Shown here: positions 2,006 through 20,553 of the stretch, piece by piece
How positions within the stretch are numbered: position 1 is the first letter of the stretch
Layout: every line of letters begins with the position of its first letter
UHGV virus genome: UHGV-0186582
From: a virus
Direction: 5' to 3' (one strand)
DNA length: 39,992 bases
Made by a program: the position numbers and the translations under genes
The notes under the pieces: model-generated
The model's input: the letters and a program-made list of their open reading frames with translations, nothing else
What the model was told of the DNA's origin: nothing
The model's database searches: none

Positions 2006-3201
2006 GACTCCACCGTTATAACGATATTTTCCGGGGTACAGGACGCAGATTCGTTGTATCTGATATCAATGTTTGATGACGACAAAGCCCCCGGGGATTT
2101 CCCAATCGTCAGTTCCTGAATATCGTAATAGCGTGCATTCCCGCCACTCACCACGCCAAGATTCGCCGGTGAGTAAATGCGACTTAAAAGGACCGAATCA
2201 CCAATCGTCAGACTATTGATATAGTCGGAAATAGCCTGCTGGATCTGCTGCCCTATCTGTGAGGTATAACCCGTAAAAACTTTTAATTTAATCCGGGCAT
2301 AAACAGGCACATCACTGGAACGCGAGAATTTGATTACATGGGGATTGCCGTATTTATCCGGAACCGTAACGGATGTTGTACCGTGAGTGGCTGTCCCCTG
2401 GCCTTTATTCCCTCTGATAGCCTGAGCAATATCCGTCACATCACCGCCATCCACAATTACAGCAACAGAGTGTGGCGGTAACCCGTTGCCGTCCTCCGAA
2501 CCAGTATCGTTTTCATAGAGTTTGTGGCGGGTTACACCGGTAATATTAGAAACAGCACCATCCAGTGCTTCAAATGGGGTTATTGATGGCAACGCAACAC
2601 TTTGCGACTGGCGGATACGTAACTCCGAATCAGTTTCTGCCGGAGTGCCCACAGTGGCTGCAGCAGGATTGGTTACCGAAACCCAGCCACGGGTTGGCGT
2701 ATTAATTTCAGTGATAGTTCCAGCCAGCGCCGCCACTGCGCCACTGACGGAACATGTTGCGGTCACCATCACTGTACCATCCACTCCGACCACCACTGAA
2801 GCAGGCAAACGCCATATCACATTATTACTGTCTTTCACGCTGCCATTAATGATGGTTGTTCCGGTAGTTCCTGTAAGAAGCAAATCAACCGTAGAGTTCG
2901 TCGCGCCTTTACGTGAAATACCATTTATTTTCACGTTACTGGTCAGTGCAGCCCCATAGCCGGTTGCCGGTGAAAAACAGTTGTAGACAGTTATCGCCGT
3001 ATTATTGGCATCATGAATCGCCAGCGCCATCAGAGCCACCATCTGGCCGTCTTTGCTGTCCGGTTCGAGGTAGGCATCACTGCCATAAATCTGCTGAAAA
3101 TAGCTAATCAGGGTGCTGAGTATCGTCTGATAATCAGGCGCACTGATCCCCTCCGCGGTTACCTTTGCAGATAAACCGAGAGAATCAAGGTTCAGAGCCA
3201 T
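2002..3201 (-). CDS. Baseplate J-like protein (Mu gp47-like)
   Basis: 399-aa ORF, overlapping starts/stops with neighbours; position in Mu-like baseplate order. Confidence 0.6.
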   Translation of the reverse strand: MALNLDSLGLSAKVTAEGISAPDYQTILSTLISYFQQIYGSDAYLEPDSKDGQMVALMALAIHDANNTAITVYNCFSPATGYGAALTSNVKINGISRKGATNSTVDLLLTGTTGTTIINGSVKDSNNVIWRLPASVVVGVDGTVMVTATCSVSGAVAALAGTITEINTPTRGWVSVTNPAAATVGTPAETDSELRIRQSQSVALPSITPFEALDGAVSNITGVTRHKLYENDTGSEDGNGLPPHSVAVIVDGGDVTDIAQAIRGNKGQGTATHGTTSVTVPDKYGNPHVIKFSRSSDVPVYARIKLKVFTGYTSQIGQQIQQAISDYINSLTIGDSVLLSRIYSPANLGVVSGGNARYYDIQELTIGKSPGALSSSNIDIRYNESASCTPENIVITVES

Positions 3202-3554
3202 TACGCCTCCGATGTAACAGTCGTTATTCCATAAAGAGTGTCGATTTCAGCGGAAAACATGACACGTCGGGTCGTGGTATCCACCGTCGTATTGAAAGAG
3301 AGGATTGATTTAACGCCCCGCGTTTCGAGGATGCGCTTACGGATCGCCAGGTTGTAGGTTTCCGGCTTCTGCTTACCGAGTACGGACTGGATCCACGGAG
3401 TCCCCTCGGTGGTGTCGAGAAACCATTGCCCATACCACAATTCGAATCGCGTTTTTACCGCCTGCGCCACGGCCTCCGGTGAGTTAATCAGCCAGGTGTC
3501 ATCACCGCTGCCAAAGGTATAATCGCCATCGGCGTCTTCACGTCTGTATCGCAT
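3201..3554 (-). CDS. Baseplate wedge protein (gp25/GPW-like, Mu gp46-like)
   Basis: 117 aa; size and position between spike and J-like gene. Confidence 0.5.
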   Translation of the reverse strand: MRYRREDADGDYTFGSGDDTWLINSPEAVAQAVKTRFELWYGQWFLDTTEGTPWIQSVLGKQKPETYNLAIRKRILETRGVKSILSFNTTVDTTTRRVMFSAEIDTLYGITTVTSEA

Positions 3555-4306
3555 CAGTTCACCCCGTCTGTGTTGCTTCCGCCTCGCTGAACCCCGCCGT
3601 GCGTGTGAGTATCATCAATTGACTTGCCGTTAGCTTTAACGGTACCGATAAACTCGACAGCGCCGGTGATTTTGGATGCAACTCCAGAAGCAACAGACCC
3701 CACCATTCCACCCAGCCAGGACAGTAGCCCGTGAATGGTTACTTTCGCCGAGAAGTCGGCCAGCGGGGTAACTACATCCAGACCGCCAGGCGCTACGATT
3801 TTAATTTTCTGCGTATCCGGATTAAGGTCGATGTACGTACTTCCATCAACACTTCGAAGCTGCGCCGACGTGGTGCTGACATTCTTAATTTTGTTGGGCT
3901 GAGATATTTGACCCACTGAGCAGGTGGCGTCGGACAGGTCATGTATGCGGTCGTCGACAGGTTCCTGCACTCCACCGTTTTGCCAGAAGAAATCAATACA
4001 GCGGTCTTGAAACTTAAGTTCGCACTCATCGCCGGGGCTCACCGGCAACGTTAAAGTAACTCCCCCGGCCGTTGGGAATACCACGGGAACATCCACCAGC
4101 AGCGGGTAAGGTTTTGTCACCCGGTTACCATCGTTATCGATCTCAACGTAACGGATAGCAGGCTGCACAACCGCCGTAACCGCGTCAGAATCGAATGACT
4201 GAATAATGCCAGGCAAAGCGACTCGGATCTGGTTCTTTGTTGTTTCCCGTTCAGATTTGAATGTTTCAGCAAGGTCGCCGCTGCGGGTCTGGTCAGATAC
4301 TGCCAT
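3554..4306 (-). CDS. Baseplate spike / assembly protein V-like (Mu gp45-like)
   Basis: 250 aa; ATG at 4304-4306 with GGAG RBS upstream; position in baseplate cluster. Confidence 0.5.
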   Translation of the reverse strand: MAVSDQTRSGDLAETFKSERETTKNQIRVALPGIIQSFDSDAVTAVVQPAIRYVEIDNDGNRVTKPYPLLVDVPVVFPTAGGVTLTLPVSPGDECELKFQDRCIDFFWQNGGVQEPVDDRIHDLSDATCSVGQISQPNKIKNVSTTSAQLRSVDGSTYIDLNPDTQKIKIVAPGGLDVVTPLADFSAKVTIHGLLSWLGGMVGSVASGVASKITGAVEFIGTVKANGKSIDDTHTHGGVQRGGSNTDGVN

Positions 4307-13510: not shown

Positions 13511-13914
13511 AGCTGGCGACCGCCTGCGCCAAACATCGTGATCAACTGATAAAATTCAGCGCCATATCGGGTGTTATTCCAGAAACCTGCATCAGGATTC
13601 AGCGTCGCGCTGGTGTCATAGCTGACGCTTACCTTGTCAACAGACTTAGAGGATTGAACACCATTGGTTGAACCGCCCGGGCCGCCAACCAGCATTGCCC
13701 GGCTGTCTGCCGCCCATAGCGTCATGTAGTGAGCCACGAACAACCCGGCAAAGTACGGAAACAACTTTTTGCCGGTGACGTTTTCGCTCAGCAGTTCATC
13801 GGCCAGATTCAGACGAAACTGGATTTGCGCTTCGGGATATTTGGCAGGGTCAGCAAACTGCGGGAAGTCGCGGCGAAAATCACTTACCGCTGGCAGACTT
13901 TGATTCTTTGGCAT
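13507..13914 (-). CDS. Hypothetical head protein
   Basis: 135-aa ORF downstream of capsid gene. Confidence 0.4.
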
Positions 13915-14101
13915 TTTTTACCTCGTTACGCGCGTCTGTGGCTTTGCCAACGGATACTTCCGCGTGCGCACGAGTGAACCAGTGCGTGGCAACGTCTTCC
14001 TCCACTGCATGACGGCCTTTAACAAACTCGCGCCGAGAACCGTCGGGAAGCGTGAGCACAAACGGGGTATGTACGTGTATTACTGCATTATTTTTTGCCA
14101 T
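13880..14101 (-). CDS. Small hypothetical head protein
   Basis: Internal ATG ([10 protein letters not shown]...) with AAGGA RBS between capsid stop and next gene; the longer 150-aa track ORF would overlap the capsid gene. Confidence 0.35.
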
Positions 14102-14141
14102 CGGGTCATCCTTAATGGCCCCGCCAGGGGCCATGTGGCTG

Positions 14142-15083
14142 TTAAATGCCATCAACGTACGAAATGGTTTCTTTGTACACTGGCTCGACTGCACCCAGCT
14201 TGCCGTAGTAAGTGACGATCTGATACAGACCGCGATACTGCACCGGCACGCTCTGAAGCGGAACCAGCGGGTAGCGGACGTATTTTTTATCGTTGGTGTA
14301 CGCAACCATGCGATCCTTATCCCCCACACCACGGCCTTTCAGCCATTTAACCGCGCGGATATTCAGCGGAACACCGTTCTGGTGATAGCTGATGGTGTTG
14401 GTCTGAAGGTACGTCAACAGGGACTGGTTACCAGCAGATGAAACGATGATGCTGGACAACAGAGCAAACTGCTCAGGTGGGATCAGCAAATCACTCGGAA
14501 CCACAGAGTAACCGGAAGCGGCCCACGCATCAGACAGCACCTGGTTAATGCTTGCGCGGATTTCGTCCGGTGTTGAGGTTGCCCACGTTTTGGCAGCGTT
14601 GTTGACAGGAACACCGTTCAGGGTAACAAGGCCTTTCAGGTTTAATGCGGAATCGCCAACATACACCTGTTCATCGTTATCCATCTGCCATTTCAGTTGC
14701 ATCCCGTCATACTTCTGCGTATCAATCGGGCGTCCGACCTGCTGAGCAGCCTGCAATTCTATGACCGTCCAGCCAAGCTCCATCCCCCACAGGTTCAGCG
14801 GGTTACCGGATTTGCCGATATCCACGTTCACGCCAGCAATAGCGGTTGAGTCTTTGCCTACCCAGTTTTTGCCATTCGGATTTGCACCAGTACCCGCAGC
14901 GGCGAAGCTGGTATTCGTCCAGCTGGAAATGTCATCTGCGATAGAGACATCTTCACGCAACTGAATATCGCGGGTCCAGGTGTACCCCACCAGTGGCAGG
15001 TTCAGCGTCTGGTCGAGTCGCTCCAGCTCCCCGATGAGAAAGGCACCAGAGCTGTCAACGGTTGCCTGATCAAAAGTAATCAT
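14142..15083 (-). CDS. Major capsid protein
   Basis: 313 aa, position after scaffold/decoration genes. Confidence 0.6.
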   Translation of the reverse strand: MITFDQATVDSSGAFLIGELERLDQTLNLPLVGYTWTRDIQLREDVSIADDISSWTNTSFAAAGTGANPNGKNWVGKDSTAIAGVNVDIGKSGNPLNLWGMELGWTVIELQAAQQVGRPIDTQKYDGMQLKWQMDNDEQVYVGDSALNLKGLVTLNGVPVNNAAKTWATSTPDEIRASINQVLSDAWAASGYSVVPSDLLIPPEQFALLSSIIVSSAGNQSLLTYLQTNTISYHQNGVPLNIRAVKWLKGRGVGDKDRMVAYTNDKKYVRYPLVPLQSVPVQYRGLYQIVTYYGKLGAVEPVYKETISYVDGI

Positions 15084-15604: not shown

Positions 15605-16825
15605 TTACCCTTTACGGTTTGCCCAGAATTCAGCGTTTTGTTTGTTCAGGGAAGCGATACTGGTCATGCCCATGTTTAGGCGCTGTGCATCGCCGGTGGT
15701 GGCGCGGGTGTTTCGCCCTTTGGCAATCTCAGACACGGCATTAAACGCCATGTCGACCGATTGTTTCGGCAATTTGCGGATATCCGCATCACCGACTATC
15801 TGGCGAACCAGCGTTTTGTCAGCAGAAGCCAGAACCTCGCGTTTGAACGCGGTCGGTTTCATCTTACGGCTCAGATCGATACCCGGAACGATAACTTCGG
15901 CACGCCAGGCTGAGTCACCAGTAATCGTGGTTTCCTCTTCATCGTCCTCGCCGTCACCGGTTGGATTATCGTCAGGCTTATTATCGTTATCGCCCGTCGC
16001 ATTTCCTTCCAGCTTAGCCAGCAGGGATTTCAGTAATGTTTTGAGGTCATCATCACTGTCGCCGGTAGGACCTCCGCCCATCTCTGGTGCTTTGTCCGGT
16101 AGTGGTTGCTGCGGGGATAGGTTGATGTTGAGATTAACGCCCTGCGGCAAATCCCCCTCATCTCCTGTAACCGATGCGGGAGCCGACTCCACCAGTTCGT
16201 TCATGGTGTCGGCATCTCCTGTCTTGATGGCTGCACGCATGCGGTTCCACCAGTTTTTCTTTTGATTTGCCATTGTGTCTCTGTCTCCAATTGCACAACG
16301 ATTTCCGGCTCTGCCTTTGGGGACAAGAGCCACATGGTTTCCGGTAATATCGACCTGCTCGGCTTTACCTGGCTCGGTCTGCTCATACTCCGCGTCATAG
16401 CCGCACGACACTTCGCGCAGGCCATCTTCGATAAGCTGAATGGCGCTTTCGTCTTTGACGATAAGGTCAGCCAGCATCAAATCAGACTGCTCACCCGTCC
16501 CGCGCCGGACATTCTGGAGGTGCCCGACAGCAAGCTCTTTCCAGTTCTCGGGATTTACCAGCCGCACATTCCCGTTTTCATCTTCAGGATGCAGGATCGT
16601 GATGCTCATCCCTTCGAATGAGGCAAGCGTGGCCGGATGGAATACCTGCTCAGGAGAACGTGTGACGACTATTTCACCGAACTTATCGGGTTTCAGTTTT
16701 GGCAGGTCATCAGCACCATAGAGCTGCTTACCTGTTCGTCCTATCGGCACGTCTTTGCACAGCAACGAGCCGTCAGCCAGCTGATAGCGGGTTTCCCCCA
16801 GCCGGGTATTGAAAAAATATTTCAT
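15605..16825 (-). CDS. Scaffold / prohead protease-like protein
   Basis: 406 aa with acidic low-complexity C-terminal half (DSDDDL...GDGEDDEEE) typical of scaffolds; position. Confidence 0.5.
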   Translation of the reverse strand: MKYFFNTRLGETRYQLADGSLLCKDVPIGRTGKQLYGADDLPKLKPDKFGEIVVTRSPEQVFHPATLASFEGMSITILHPEDENGNVRLVNPENWKELAVGHLQNVRRGTGEQSDLMLADLIVKDESAIQLIEDGLREVSCGYDAEYEQTEPGKAEQVDITGNHVALVPKGRAGNRCAIGDRDTMANQKKNWWNRMRAAIKTGDADTMNELVESAPASVTGDEGDLPQGVNLNINLSPQQPLPDKAPEMGGGPTGDSDDDLKTLLKSLLAKLEGNATGDNDNKPDDNPTGDGEDDEEETTITGDSAWRAEVIVPGIDLSRKMKPTAFKREVLASADKTLVRQIVGDADIRKLPKQSVDMAFNAVSEIAKGRNTRATTGDAQRLNMGMTSIASLNKQNAEFWANRKG

Positions 16826-16839
16826 GTGTTACCTGCGAT

Positions 16840-17613
16840 TCAGGCGGGATAAGAATGGGAGGAGGGAAAAACGATTTCTTTATAACAGCGACAATTCGGG
16901 AGCTCGCCAGCGTGACCGGTCATGCCATCAAGCGTTGGAGGTTTGCCCCATTCGACAAATTTACCTTCCATTTCCCGATGAGAATGCCTGACGTCACCAT
17001 CTTCGGCTGTACGCCAGATATAACCATTCGAACCAATTGACAGCGCACGTGCCTGATCCAGCGCGCCGGTTGCACGTCCAAGTTCAGTACGGGCAATCAG
17101 GTCAGCTCTGGACTTTGCTATATCACCCGATGCTGCAATTTCTTTAGCAAAATGTTCTGCTCTCCCACCGGTCACAACAGCTTCTATCGCCCGATTCTGG
17201 ATGTCGTACACCCTGTCAGCCGCCTCGAGGGGGAGCGATTTGATGTACTTGACCTGTTCGGCGATGATGGATTGCATCACCTGCCCTGGCGGGGCACTGT
17301 TTACCAGATTGCGTAGCTCACGGCTGATGGTTTTGCTGTGTTTACGCCACTGCTCATCATTCTTGCGCACAATATCGGCGGTAAAGTTTTCCGCGACCTT
17401 TGTCGCCCAGGGGGTGATGATTTCACTGTAGCGTTCCAGCGCCTCAATAATTTCCGTGATACTGTCATTTGAACCATCGTAGTGACCATTTACGATGTCC
17501 CCGACCGCCCGCGCTATCCTGCGTAGGCTGGTTCGATACCGGATTTCCGCCTGACGGTTCCTGCGGTTCGTCATCAGGTTCGCCGATGCCGGGCGGCGCT
17601 TCATCTTCGGCAT
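16840..17613 (-). CDS. Head morphogenesis protein (Mu F / SPP1 gp7-like)
   Basis: 257-aa ORF after portal; 5' end overlaps portal 3' end by ~149 nt, true start uncertain. Confidence 0.5.
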   Translation of the reverse strand: MPKMKRRPASANLMTNRRNRQAEIRYRTSLRRIARAVGDIVNGHYDGSNDSITEIIEALERYSEIITPWATKVAENFTADIVRKNDEQWRKHSKTISRELRNLVNSAPPGQVMQSIIAEQVKYIKSLPLEAADRVYDIQNRAIEAVVTGGRAEHFAKEIAASGDIAKSRADLIARTELGRATGALDQARALSIGSNGYIWRTAEDGDVRHSHREMEGKFVEWGKPPTLDGMTGHAGELPNCRCYKEIVFPSSHSYPA

Positions 17614-18931
17614 TCTCGATGTCCTCGTCGGTAATGGATGCCCCGATGCCGGTTACGTCAGAATTTTCTCGCAAATCAGTCATAGCGGCTTTCAGTGTCA
17701 TCAGACCATCACCCAGCGCTGTACTGATTGCGTTGGTAGTGTTTAACGCCACCGTTGAGCGATCGACATCAGACATTTGCCAGAGCGGGTTAAACTCAAA
17801 CGTGAAATCGTCCGGTAGCGGCTTGCCAAGTTCCGAACGATGCATGATGTCCAGTATCCGCCGCACCGGAAGACGTAAACGTCTCTCCTGCAGCGAGCTT
17901 ACCCGATCGTAATAGTTGGCAAGGTCTGCATCGCCGGTAGAAAATCCTTTCGGGGACTGTCCGAACAACCGCACCAGTGGGATACCAACAGCGCCACTAA
18001 TCTGTTCTGCAAACTGCGAAAGGATGTCATCCAGACCACTGAAGCTGTACTGATGGGTTTCAAACTTATCCCGCGAGTCCATGAGCGTCATGCCTTCATT
18101 GCTCTGGAACTGTCGAATCAGGTCGATATTCTTCAGCAACGCTTCATACGCAGGACCACCAAGTGCGATAAGCTCGCGTAGCTTCTCCACGCTGTAGGTG
18201 CGCAGATGCGCCTTGTAGACCAGCTGCGCCGCGCCGACAGTAGCGCTGTCGAACGCGGTAAGACGATCCCAGATACGCTCTACAACCGACATTCCCCATT
18301 CGTTCTCGGTCATCTTCTGCTGGAATGGCAGCGTGACGCCATCAAAGCGAATCAGACGACTGTGATGAATGCGCCAGGCAGGAATTCCCGTTGCTGTGGT
18401 CACCACATCGTAAAACTCAGGTTTACCCAGGTCCGGCCCCATATCTTTAATGCGGCGGGTCAGCACTGGGTTAATCATCCAGCGGTCGAGCGGGAGAATG
18501 CCCTTAAACTTGCCTTCTCCAATGGTTTCGAGCCGCAGCGGGGTCATTGGTGCCTGCCCCTCGATCATGATGAAGCCGACCGCGCCGCCGTAGAGGCGAG
18601 ACCATTTCAGCACGTCGTTCAGCGCATCCCAGATCTGCAACTCATCAAGTTGTGATTCGAGAATGCCGCGATCTTTTGCATCAATTTCCGAAGTGATGCG
18701 AATGCCTTTGCGGGTCATATCATCCGGGATAGCGTCGACCGCTTCGCCGATGATCCAGGACGAGCGATAGGACCATTCCACCAGCATGCGGTTGCGGCTG
18801 GTGAAGTTAGCCCGGTAGGTCGATGCTGAGTGCTGGTTAGGCGTCTGCATCCCTACGCGGGCGACAAAGTTCTCATAGCCATCAGCGGTGGCCTGCGCAG
18901 TTCTCCGCAGGGCTTGTTTGTTTCGTGCCAT
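17465..18931 (-). CDS. Portal protein
   Basis: 488 aa immediately downstream of large terminase; acidic C-terminus. Confidence 0.7.
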   Translation of the reverse strand: MARNKQALRRTAQATADGYENFVARVGMQTPNQHSASTYRANFTSRNRMLVEWSYRSSWIIGEAVDAIPDDMTRKGIRITSEIDAKDRGILESQLDELQIWDALNDVLKWSRLYGGAVGFIMIEGQAPMTPLRLETIGEGKFKGILPLDRWMINPVLTRRIKDMGPDLGKPEFYDVVTTATGIPAWRIHHSRLIRFDGVTLPFQQKMTENEWGMSVVERIWDRLTAFDSATVGAAQLVYKAHLRTYSVEKLRELIALGGPAYEALLKNIDLIRQFQSNEGMTLMDSRDKFETHQYSFSGLDDILSQFAEQISGAVGIPLVRLFGQSPKGFSTGDADLANYYDRVSSLQERRLRLPVRRILDIMHRSELGKPLPDDFTFEFNPLWQMSDVDRSTVALNTTNAISTALGDGLMTLKAAMTDLRENSDVTGIGASITDEDIENAEDEAPPGIGEPDDEPQEPSGGNPVSNQPTQDSAGGRGHRKWSLRWFK

Positions 18932-20553
18932 CAGGCCTGTCTCCCTAGCAGCTCCCAGATGTTCAGGGCTGAATTCATTGGCGCGTAGCTGATCATCACC
19001 GAGTCGGCGAGGTTCGGCGACTTGGTGCCATCAGGCTGTTTATCAACAACGATTTTCCCCACGCCGTTAATGGAGTAGGTCGGCTGCGACAGCTCGATGA
19101 TGAGTTTGTCTTTGCTCGCCATGGCGCTGCTGATTGAGATGATTTCGTCCGGGTTGTAGGCCATGCCCTCAACCACGGCGCGATAGGTGTTCTGGAAAAG
19201 CTTGCGTAACCACCACCAGCTCTGGGCCTTGGCGTTGGCGAAGAAGTCCTTGTTCAGGCGTGCGGCCTGTCCGTTGTCCCCGCGCACCGCTTCATCGTCC
19301 GGATCAAATACCGCGCCGCTACCACGAAACGGTGTGGCGAGTATTGACGGTCGGCGCGCAGCGTTACGCAGTTCGTTGATGGCGCGTGCATCGCCGCGAA
19401 CGCCAGCGCCCAGGCCGTCCTCGTCGAAGCGAAATTCTTCGAGGTTGTCCTGTTCGCAAAAGCCGAAGACCTTCTCAACGGACTGGTAAATGTCGCTGCC
19501 CACGCCGGACCATTCACGCACGTTCTCCAGAAGGAAGCCGTGACGGGTCGAAAAGGCATTTTTGTCCCGGCCTTCGTCGGCGACGTCCATCGCGCCCAGT
19601 CGCTTGCCCGTTGGCTGAATACCAAGTTTGATATGCGCGTCGACGGCAGCCTGTACCCAGTCGGACGGGATCAGGACGCCTTCCGCAGATGCGCTGTAGT
19701 TCAGGTCAAGTTCCTGCGCCACCACCACCGGATTGTCGATTTTCTCGCACTCCCTGCGATACCACTCTTCATCCTTGCGCGGGTCATCTCGCCAGTGGAA
19801 CGTGAATACTGGTATTTTTCCGCCGTGGCGCTTCTGCGCGAACGGGTTCGCCATGCCATTAACCGAGCTCAGGTCAATACGGCAACGGGTGGTTTGCGAC
19901 AGCGCCGCATCAATCAACAGAGGACGCTGGAGGAATGCAGCTTCATCCACCAGGTAGAGCGTGGTACGGTCACCACGACCGATATTGTCGCCAGCCTCGC
20001 CTTTGATGACCGCGCCAGTATCGGGAAACTCAACGCGCATATACGGCGCATGCTTCTTCTCGTCCCACGAACCACGAAACTCGATGGGCAGTGTTTCCAC
20101 GAACTTTCGCGCCTTCCAGAACAGCGCCTTCGGGTCACCGGTGCTGTCGACGTATTCCTCTTTACGGGAGCCGAAACCGATAACCATTTCTTTGTTGAAG
20201 AGACAAAGCGAGCAGGCCAGTCCGATCGCGGTCCAACTGAGCCCCATTTCACGGGATTTTTCGGTAATACCATTCTCCCGATTACCCCAGCGTTCCATAA
20301 TCCAGTGGATCCACTCCTCCTGCTTAGGGAAGAGTAAAAACGGGATGGTCACCGGCAGGCCATAATCAATATTACGCGGGTCCGTTGTCATGCCCCAGTC
20401 GATGATGAACTGAGCCGGATTGGTTCGGTAAAACTGTTTTAGTGCTGGCAATATTTCAGGATTCTGGCGAATGCGCTGTAGGCGTTCCATCCGCCATTCA
20501 AAAACCATCTGGTAATCAGGATGTTTAAAATCGAAGGGGAATGGTAACGGCAT
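18931..20553 (-). CDS. Terminase large subunit
   Basis: 540 aa; Walker B-like LYLVDEAAF; follows small subunit. Confidence 0.75.

Follow-up and report, generated by a model that had tools for sequence, protein, structure and literature searches.

The junction analyzed here lies between the portal gene and the gene for a MuF (SPP1 gp7-like) head morphogenesis protein in the virus genome UHGV-0186582, a 39,992-nt stretch of DNA referred to as the window. All coordinates are those of the whole window, and both genes are on the minus strand. The two genes share 149 nt including the portal stop codon TGA (17465-17467), and the last 49 portal codons plus the stop fall inside the MuF gene, whose reading frame is +1 relative to the portal frame. 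Comparison with related loci makes it probable that two late structural genes of a SEN34-like (Brunovirus-like) Escherichia coli prophage genuinely overlap out of frame here, with MuF starting independently at ATG 17613. Variation and codon choice in the relatives indicate that both frames are under purifying selection, which is true dual coding.

A sequence-only reading of the window had described an overlap of ~149 nt between the portal and head morphogenesis genes, and its position is confirmed as 17465 to 17613. The same reading had found no in-frame ATG, GTG or TTG near the portal stop, which also holds, with none within ~95-107 nt. The MuF frame follows an upstream stop at 17655 and then contains the canonical starts ATG 17613, ATG 17604, ATG 17574 and, next, GTG 17370; a listing of all MuF-frame candidates has no canonical start between the last two. 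The nearest to the portal stop are thus 17574, 107 nt upstream, and 17370, 95 nt downstream, and the codons near the stop are only ATT, ATC and CTG (for example, ATT 17448). Three explanations had been offered. A genuine overlap is borne out by the conserved ATG and Shine-Dalgarno sequence and the conserved MuF residues, and neither a non-canonical start nor re-initiation is supported, because conserved residues would be lost and no start lies near the stop. That reading did not foresee that the portal frame is also under selection of its own.

The portal/MuF junction in related loci

The region is 97% identical to four E. coli phages including vB_EcoM-606R2, 87% identical to Citrobacter phage Omnitron, 86% to Salmonella phage SEN34 (genus Brunovirus) and 80% to Hafnia phage yong1. 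A prophage of E. coli O8:H8 16F5M1D1 matches the junction at 100% identity, and 337 of 5,426 complete E. coli genomes contain it at ≥ 80% identity. For a wider comparison, 80 prophage loci with a MuF identity of 44-88% were taken from one-genome-per-species contigs, and the portal stop and the MuF frame were located in each. The usable set of 82 loci consists of the window, 4 phages and 77 genomes, and the MuF identity of the relatives is 44-98%.

Overlap length was counted from the codon aligned to ATG 17613 to the portal stop. The overlap is 134-179 nt long in 76 of the 82 loci, which span Enterobacterales and Burkholderiales (including Pandoraea, Cupriavidus and Ralstonia) and keep the portal stop within a few codons of the same position. 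The other six loci are the most distant and come from Ochrobactrum, Chelatococcus, Chitiniphilus, an Oxalobacter metagenome-assembled genome (MAG), a marine gammaproteobacterial MAG and Alkanindiges; their overlaps are 17-92 nt and their portal tails are shorter. In each of the 81 relatives examined, as in the window, portal and MuF are separate open reading frames (ORFs) in a +1 relation, which rules out a sequencing error or a pseudogene as the source of the frame relation.

Three loci differ in other ways. The MuF gene of Apirhabdus apintestini CP138906 (L024) is frameshifted, and this locus was left out of the counts. At ~3001-3770 of that locus, MuF residues 68-257 run on in the portal frame straight after the portal stop, and the tblastn match is 770 nt long, which is not a multiple of three. 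The frameshift is probably due to a decaying prophage or an assembly error and not to a fusion. Pantoea stewartii (L029) and an Acidobacteriota MAG (L084) have a MuF homologue but no window-like portal upstream at E ≤ 1e-5, and another type of portal may accompany MuF in these two.

The MuF start site

At the codon aligned to ATG 17613, 65 of the 82 loci have ATG and 3 have GTG. A GAGGA or AAGGA motif lies exactly 8 nt 5' of the aligned start in 60 of these 68 loci and is missing wherever the ATG is missing; GGAG or AGGA occupies the same spacing in 6 more loci. The combination of ATG and GAGGA seen at 17613 is conserved down to ~48% identity. Both elements are embedded in the portal codons for ITDEDI-NA, and the portal codons that carry them are nearly fixed. 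For the portal Glu in the Shine-Dalgarno sequence, 42 of 47 loci use GAG, whose background frequency is 51%, and the 5 GAA codons belong to Photorhabdus loci without the aligned ATG. The "AT" of the start comes from a portal Asn or Asp codon; all 35 loci with Asn use AAT and all 17 with Asp use GAT, compared to backgrounds of 34% and 49%. Six Photorhabdus loci (L072, L074, L075, L077, L078 and L081) have GCG or AAG in place of ATG and GAAGA in place of GAGGA; both elements are lost in the same loci, and therefore the start codon and the Shine-Dalgarno sequence co-vary.

ATG 17613 is taken as the start because its ATG and Shine-Dalgarno sequence are conserved and co-vary, the portal synonymous positions are fixed, and Met4 and Met14 are not conserved. 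These data support ATG 17613 as the predicted MuF start, with its own initiation signal inside the portal gene. ATG 17604 (Met4) was rejected because the codon is not conserved across the relatives. In the six Photorhabdus loci (around position 3001 of each), the sole candidate start is a TTG two codons upstream, which lacks an obvious Shine-Dalgarno sequence. Judged from these sequences, MuF initiation in the six loci must differ or be weak.

A real overlap would also result if MuF started at ATG 17574 (Met14), which is the RefSeq/Prokaryotic Genome Annotation Pipeline (PGAP) call and gives a 244-aa protein and a 110-nt overlap. PGAP selects this codon on an identical sequence, many NCBI homologues are called as 244 or 245 aa, and close relatives carry TTG or ATG at MuF position 13 or 14. 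However, many loci have no start codon at either position, and the sequence before 17574 (ggcatcggcgaacctgATG) has no Shine-Dalgarno-like motif, whereas the signal at 17613 has the depth of conservation, the co-variation and the fixed portal codons described above. A start at 17574 in place of 17613 is considered unlikely.

The annotation history of the gene is varied. One gene has been deposited with four lengths of 257, 244, 202 and 176 aa (records include ON470579, NC_028699, NC_073022 and NZ_AP019856). The 257-aa form corresponds to ENA/Logan gene calls and the 244-aa form to the PGAP call from ATG 17574, which itself implies the 110-nt overlap. SEN34 and yong1 carry the 202-aa form, called from an internal Met whose counterpart in the window is ATT 17448 (Ile), and ON470579 carries the 176-aa form, called from the GTG that corresponds to 17370. 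There are also database clusters of 149 aa. PGAP and Prodigal-type callers already draw overlaps of 110 and 149 nt at this junction. Searches of the literature on portal/MuF overlap, DUF1073 overlap, SEN34 and phage overlapping genes found no account of the portal/MuF overlap, and a literature search found no proteomic or ribosome-profiling data for the SEN34-like phage group.

Large overlaps in prokaryotic annotations are often mispredictions, and the long overlap would be an annotation artefact if MuF started at or after the portal stop, at ATT 17448 or GTG 17370, perhaps by re-initiation. The annotations of SEN34 and yong1 from an ATG equivalent to 17448, and that of ON470579 from the GTG, are of this kind. 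The window has ATT and not ATG at 17448, without a preceding Shine-Dalgarno sequence. The 50-55 residues encoded 5' of 17448 are conserved as protein and have MuF-frame periodicity in more than 70 loci, every relative has an uninterrupted MuF frame from the M1 codon onward, and the alignment to the phrog_324 profile begins at residue 6. An annotation artefact is extremely improbable on these grounds. ATT 17448 and GTG 17370 were rejected as starts because either would delete conserved residues. Termination-reinitiation coupling of the ATGA or TAATG type was rejected because it needs a start beside the stop, and the nearest ones are 107 nt upstream and 95 nt downstream. The comparative evidence favors the predicted 257-aa MuF from 17613. 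The shorter annotations remove conserved residues, and the comparison selects one start among them.

Selection on the two reading frames

In five close genomes, no stop interrupts the MuF frame from the ATG equivalent to 17613 onward. Differences among these genomes within RQAEIRYRTSLRxIARAVGDIVxGxYDGSNDS change portal amino acids but are silent in the MuF frame, and MuF residues ~20-50 are kept in 60-70%-identity homologues of Xenorhabdus, Pantoea, Morganella, Arsenophonus and Providencia. Codon-class variation was measured on 18 non-redundant gap-free loci. Upstream of the overlap, variation follows the portal periodicity with 0.54 at position 3 and 0.17 and 0.11 at positions 1 and 2. Between nt 60 and 148 of the overlap, variation peaks at MuF position 3 with a value of 0.34 versus 0.15 and 0.11 for the other classes. 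These patterns indicate that the MuF segment inside the portal gene is coding and under purifying selection. The 0.34 at MuF position 3 is itself well below the 0.53 of the MuF-only region.

Synonymous divergence between pairs with the same amino acid is 0.41 for MuF residues 20-50 versus 0.57-0.65 in all later blocks. It falls to 0.02 at MuF position 32 and 0.04 at position 33 (the rare Ile codon ATA), compared to ~0.6 elsewhere, and again to ~0 at positions 45-47. MuF Tyr45 is TAC in 62 of 62 loci, Asp46 is GAT in 60 of 62 and Gly47 is GGT in 60 of 70, against backgrounds of 60%, 51% and 30%. The frozen codon choices spell the portal residues ..D-S.. and ..L-R-W-F and avoid TGA in the portal frame. 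The portal tail itself consists of a variable acidic, proline-rich linker followed by a short conserved C-terminus, ..PxSNxPTxDS....LRWF. The MuF residues in the overlap were also recoded synonymously by simulation using the codon usage of each locus. The portal frame stayed open to the observed stop in a median of 5% (mean 8%) of trials, and all 55 non-redundant loci keep it open. An open probability with a median of ~0.05 per locus, together with the 76 of 82 loci that keep the overlap, places the overlap beyond chance.

These data bear on the proposal that the portal tail is nonfunctional and that the portal ORF runs by chance into a MuF gene whose frame alone is selected. In favor of this proposal, the tail is not covered by either the Pfam portal domain (up to residue 402) or the alignments to solved portals (up to residue 452 at most); the linker varies and has low complexity, and the most distant loci have shorter tails. 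A tail of this kind would not account for the avoidance of stops in all 55 loci, for the synonymous freezing of MuF codons 32, 33 and 45-47 that preserves the portal DS and LRWF, or for the position of the portal stop in the 76 loci with a long overlap. A chance run-on is very unlikely.

A programmed +1 frameshift within the overlap could make a portal-MuF fusion, besides or in place of a separate MuF. The shift from the portal to the MuF frame is +1, fused portal-MuF proteins are found in other phages (phrog_2662), and the window carries a CCC-G site (GCG CCG CCC GGC), a sequence that is in principle prone to +1 slippage. No shift site is conserved, however. Relatives have CCA or CCG in place of the CCC, and all three codon positions are variable over the first 60 nt of the overlap. 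A conserved Shine-Dalgarno sequence and ATG belong to MuF itself, selection on the portal frame reaches as far as the portal stop, and there are no fused ORFs among the 120 closest homologues. RNA structure was analyzed using RNAalifold. The consensus for -80 to +40 around the start in 20 loci is -0.88 kcal/mol with no supporting covariation, and that for the whole overlap in 11 loci is -4.89 kcal/mol with a positive covariation term and no supporting covariation. Single-sequence RNA folds differ between loci. Thus, no conserved RNA structure was found around the start or across the overlap that could account for the constraint, and a conserved fold masking the MuF ribosome-binding site or promoting a frameshift was rejected. 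Because fusions occur elsewhere, a minor portal-MuF product is conceivable, but nothing in the data calls for one here, and programmed frameshifting is highly improbable.

Proposed explanation, gene context and known systems

The explanation proposed for the overlap starts with independent MuF initiation. Ribosomes would begin MuF at ATG 17613, 149 nt before the portal stop, using the GAGGA inside the portal ITDEDI-NA codons. Portal translation would continue through the linker into the conserved C-terminal tail, and the same nucleotides in the +1 frame would encode the basic MuF N-terminus and its first predicted helix (..RQAEIRYRTSLRxIAxAVGDIVxGxYDGS). Production of MuF is probably coupled to that of the portal and held at a lower level, as would suit a low-copy protein associated with the portal; the coupling is proposed because the start site sits on mRNA crossed by ribosomes translating the portal. 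Overprinting probably extended the portal by its long tail across a MuF N-terminus that already existed, and the tail would later have gained the DS and LRWF motifs. This direction is proposed because the MuF N-terminus is present in all loci, including the most distant ones, whose portal tails are shorter and whose overlaps are 17-92 nt.

Several points weigh against this account of the overlap. The loci are related by descent and the counts overstate the number of independent events; third positions elsewhere are near saturation in the same locus set despite this relatedness. Variation in the first 60 nt of the overlap is still of the portal type, with 0.44 at portal position 3 versus 0.34 and 0.27, and therefore MuF residues 1-19 are weakly constrained. 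The weak constraint leaves room for ATG 17574 as the main or an additional start. The AlphaFold2 model of MuF, made from a 22-sequence alignment, has a mean predicted local distance difference test score of 53, with values <50 for residues 1-129 and a low-confidence helix at 10-42, and is too low in confidence to support the N-terminus structurally. The invariant nucleotides in the overlap could in principle serve an undetected function at the nucleic acid level. The expression-ratio role and the direction of overprinting are inferences, and both protein termini are predicted from sequence.

A further reading goes beyond coding. The shared ~150 nt might encode segments that contact each other in the virion, namely the portal C-terminal tail (DS...LRWF) and the basic, helical MuF N-terminus. 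If so, the overlap would be a genetic lock that keeps co-adapted partners and their expression ratio together through the mosaic recombination of temperate phages. In a rarer variant of this reading, some ribosomes may also shift +1 and make a portal-MuF fusion as in other phages. Direct contact between the two segments is doubtful. The overlap suggests the hypothesis that the portal LRWF tail and the MuF N-terminus are functionally linked.

The features of the junction and its neighbors are collected in Table 1. The order in the head module is terminase large subunit, portal, MuF, DUF2213 and then the DUF2184 capsid protein, and MuF directly follows the portal gene in this head/packaging module. 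A Pfam search of the large terminase ORF returned zero matches at E ≤ 0.01. The terminase stop and the portal ATG at 18931 overlap by 1 nt (TGATG), which is the usual tight coupling, unlike the 149-nt portal/MuF overlap. The MuF gene is followed by a 14-nt gap, and the portal/MuF junction is the exception among tight operon junctions. The ORF list has other apparent overlaps of ~29-190 nt among head and tail genes, at 13880-14332 and 12042-12608/12580-12969, all on the minus strand. These are probably over-extended GTG or TTG ORF starts and not real overlaps.

Table 1. Features of the portal/MuF junction and the surrounding head module (window coordinates)
Feature	Position	Strand	Basis or remark
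Large terminase	18931..20553	-	ORF list
Portal gene, 488 aa	17465..18931	-	PF06381 Phage_portal_3 / DUF1073
MuF / SPP1 gp7-like head morphogenesis (minor head) gene, 257 aa	16840..17613	-	PF04233; ATG 17613 as start
DUF2213 protein	15605..16825	-	
Gene named "structural cement protein Gp24" by PGAP		-	Downstream of MuF
DUF2184 protein (major-capsid-like family)		-	Same head module
Predicted dual-coding overlap, 149 nt	17465..17613	-	MuF residues 1-50 (+1 frame); portal residues 440-488 and stop
Shine-Dalgarno GAGGA, 8 nt 5' of MuF ATG	17622..17626	-	Within portal D-E-D codons of conserved ITDEDI motif
MuF start codon ATG, best supported	17611..17613	-	Comparative alignment
Alternative ATG (Met14)	17572..17574	-	PGAP start: 244 aa, 110-nt overlap; conserved in close relatives only
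ATT (Ile56)	17446..17448	-	ATG, taken as the start (202 aa), in SEN34, Omnitron and yong1; internal codon in window
GTG (Val82)	17368..17370	-	Next canonical start past portal stop; 176-aa call in ON470579
Portal D-S codons (GAT AGC)	17513..17518	-	Overlie MuF Ile33 ATA (invariant, rare) and last base of codon 32
Portal C-terminal L-R-W-F-K codons	17468..17482	-	Overlie frozen synonymous sites of MuF Tyr45-Asp46-Gly47
MuF-frame peptide AVGDIVNGHYDGSNDSITEIIEALER, downstream of TSLR	5' of 17465, within overlap	-	

The portal protein matches PF06381 with E 3.6e-105 and 352 bits against a gathering cut-off of 33.8, and its sequence is identical to a protein annotated as DUF1073 by PGAP. It is similar to solved dodecameric portals, including the Pam3 portal 8hds (E 2.5e-35), 9l01, 9jlf and 8fvh. 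Several PHROGs named "minor head protein and DNA pilot" also match the portal. MuF matches PF04233 over residues 137-243 with E 2e-17 and 64.4 bits against a cut-off of 29.6, and the phrog_324 "head morphogenesis" profile spans residues 6-255 (E 5.6e-91). A structure search found no solved structures of MuF relatives. The phrog_2662 profile ("portal protein", 717 positions) aligns MuF residues 17-249 at profile positions 487-709. These profile matches indicate that other phage groups have fused portal-MuF proteins.

Tailed double-stranded DNA phages rarely have long out-of-frame overlaps, and such overlaps are often dismissed as mispredictions. The two proteins are ordinary PF06381 and PF04233 members in the usual gene order, and out-of-frame terminal dual coding is a known phenomenon. 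The portal/MuF overlap is a fresh instance of it, real and deeply conserved though unspectacular. The junction is a handy natural model for overprinting that extends an existing protein and for an overlap that limits codon choice.

SPP1 gp6/gp7 and Mu gpH/gpF have the same arrangement of a MuF gene directly downstream of the portal gene, with the downstream protein in the same domain family (PF04233). A MuF-family gene directly 3' of the portal gene is the criterion given in PMC5576092. The portal here belongs to PF06381 (DUF1073) and not to the SPP1 or Mu portal families. The two genes share ~150 nt in different frames here; the comparison with SPP1 and Mu covers gene order and protein family. 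The phrog_2662 fusions resemble the window in the tight genetic linkage of portal and MuF, and the query MuF aligns to the C-terminal third of that profile, but portal and MuF are separate ORFs in different frames here.

Lambda G/GT and T7 10A/10B also have overlapping frames in a late structural operon that are conserved in many phages. Both need a conserved slippery site and have a downstream frame without its own start. In contrast, the portal/MuF junction has no conserved shift site, a +1 relation, and a conserved Shine-Dalgarno sequence and ATG. The closest parallel in coding is with phiX174 D/E and A/B/K, lambda Rz/Rz1 and MS2 L, in which two frames of a single DNA stretch are translated and selection retains both products. 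Overprinted frames are typically younger, of low complexity and probably disordered, and the portal tail here looks younger, of low complexity and probably disordered as well. Unlike the phiX174, Rz1 and MS2 L cases, the portal/MuF junction is a terminal overlap of two long structural genes in which neither gene is embedded and no new protein arises, and a tail of ~45 residues is added to an existing one.

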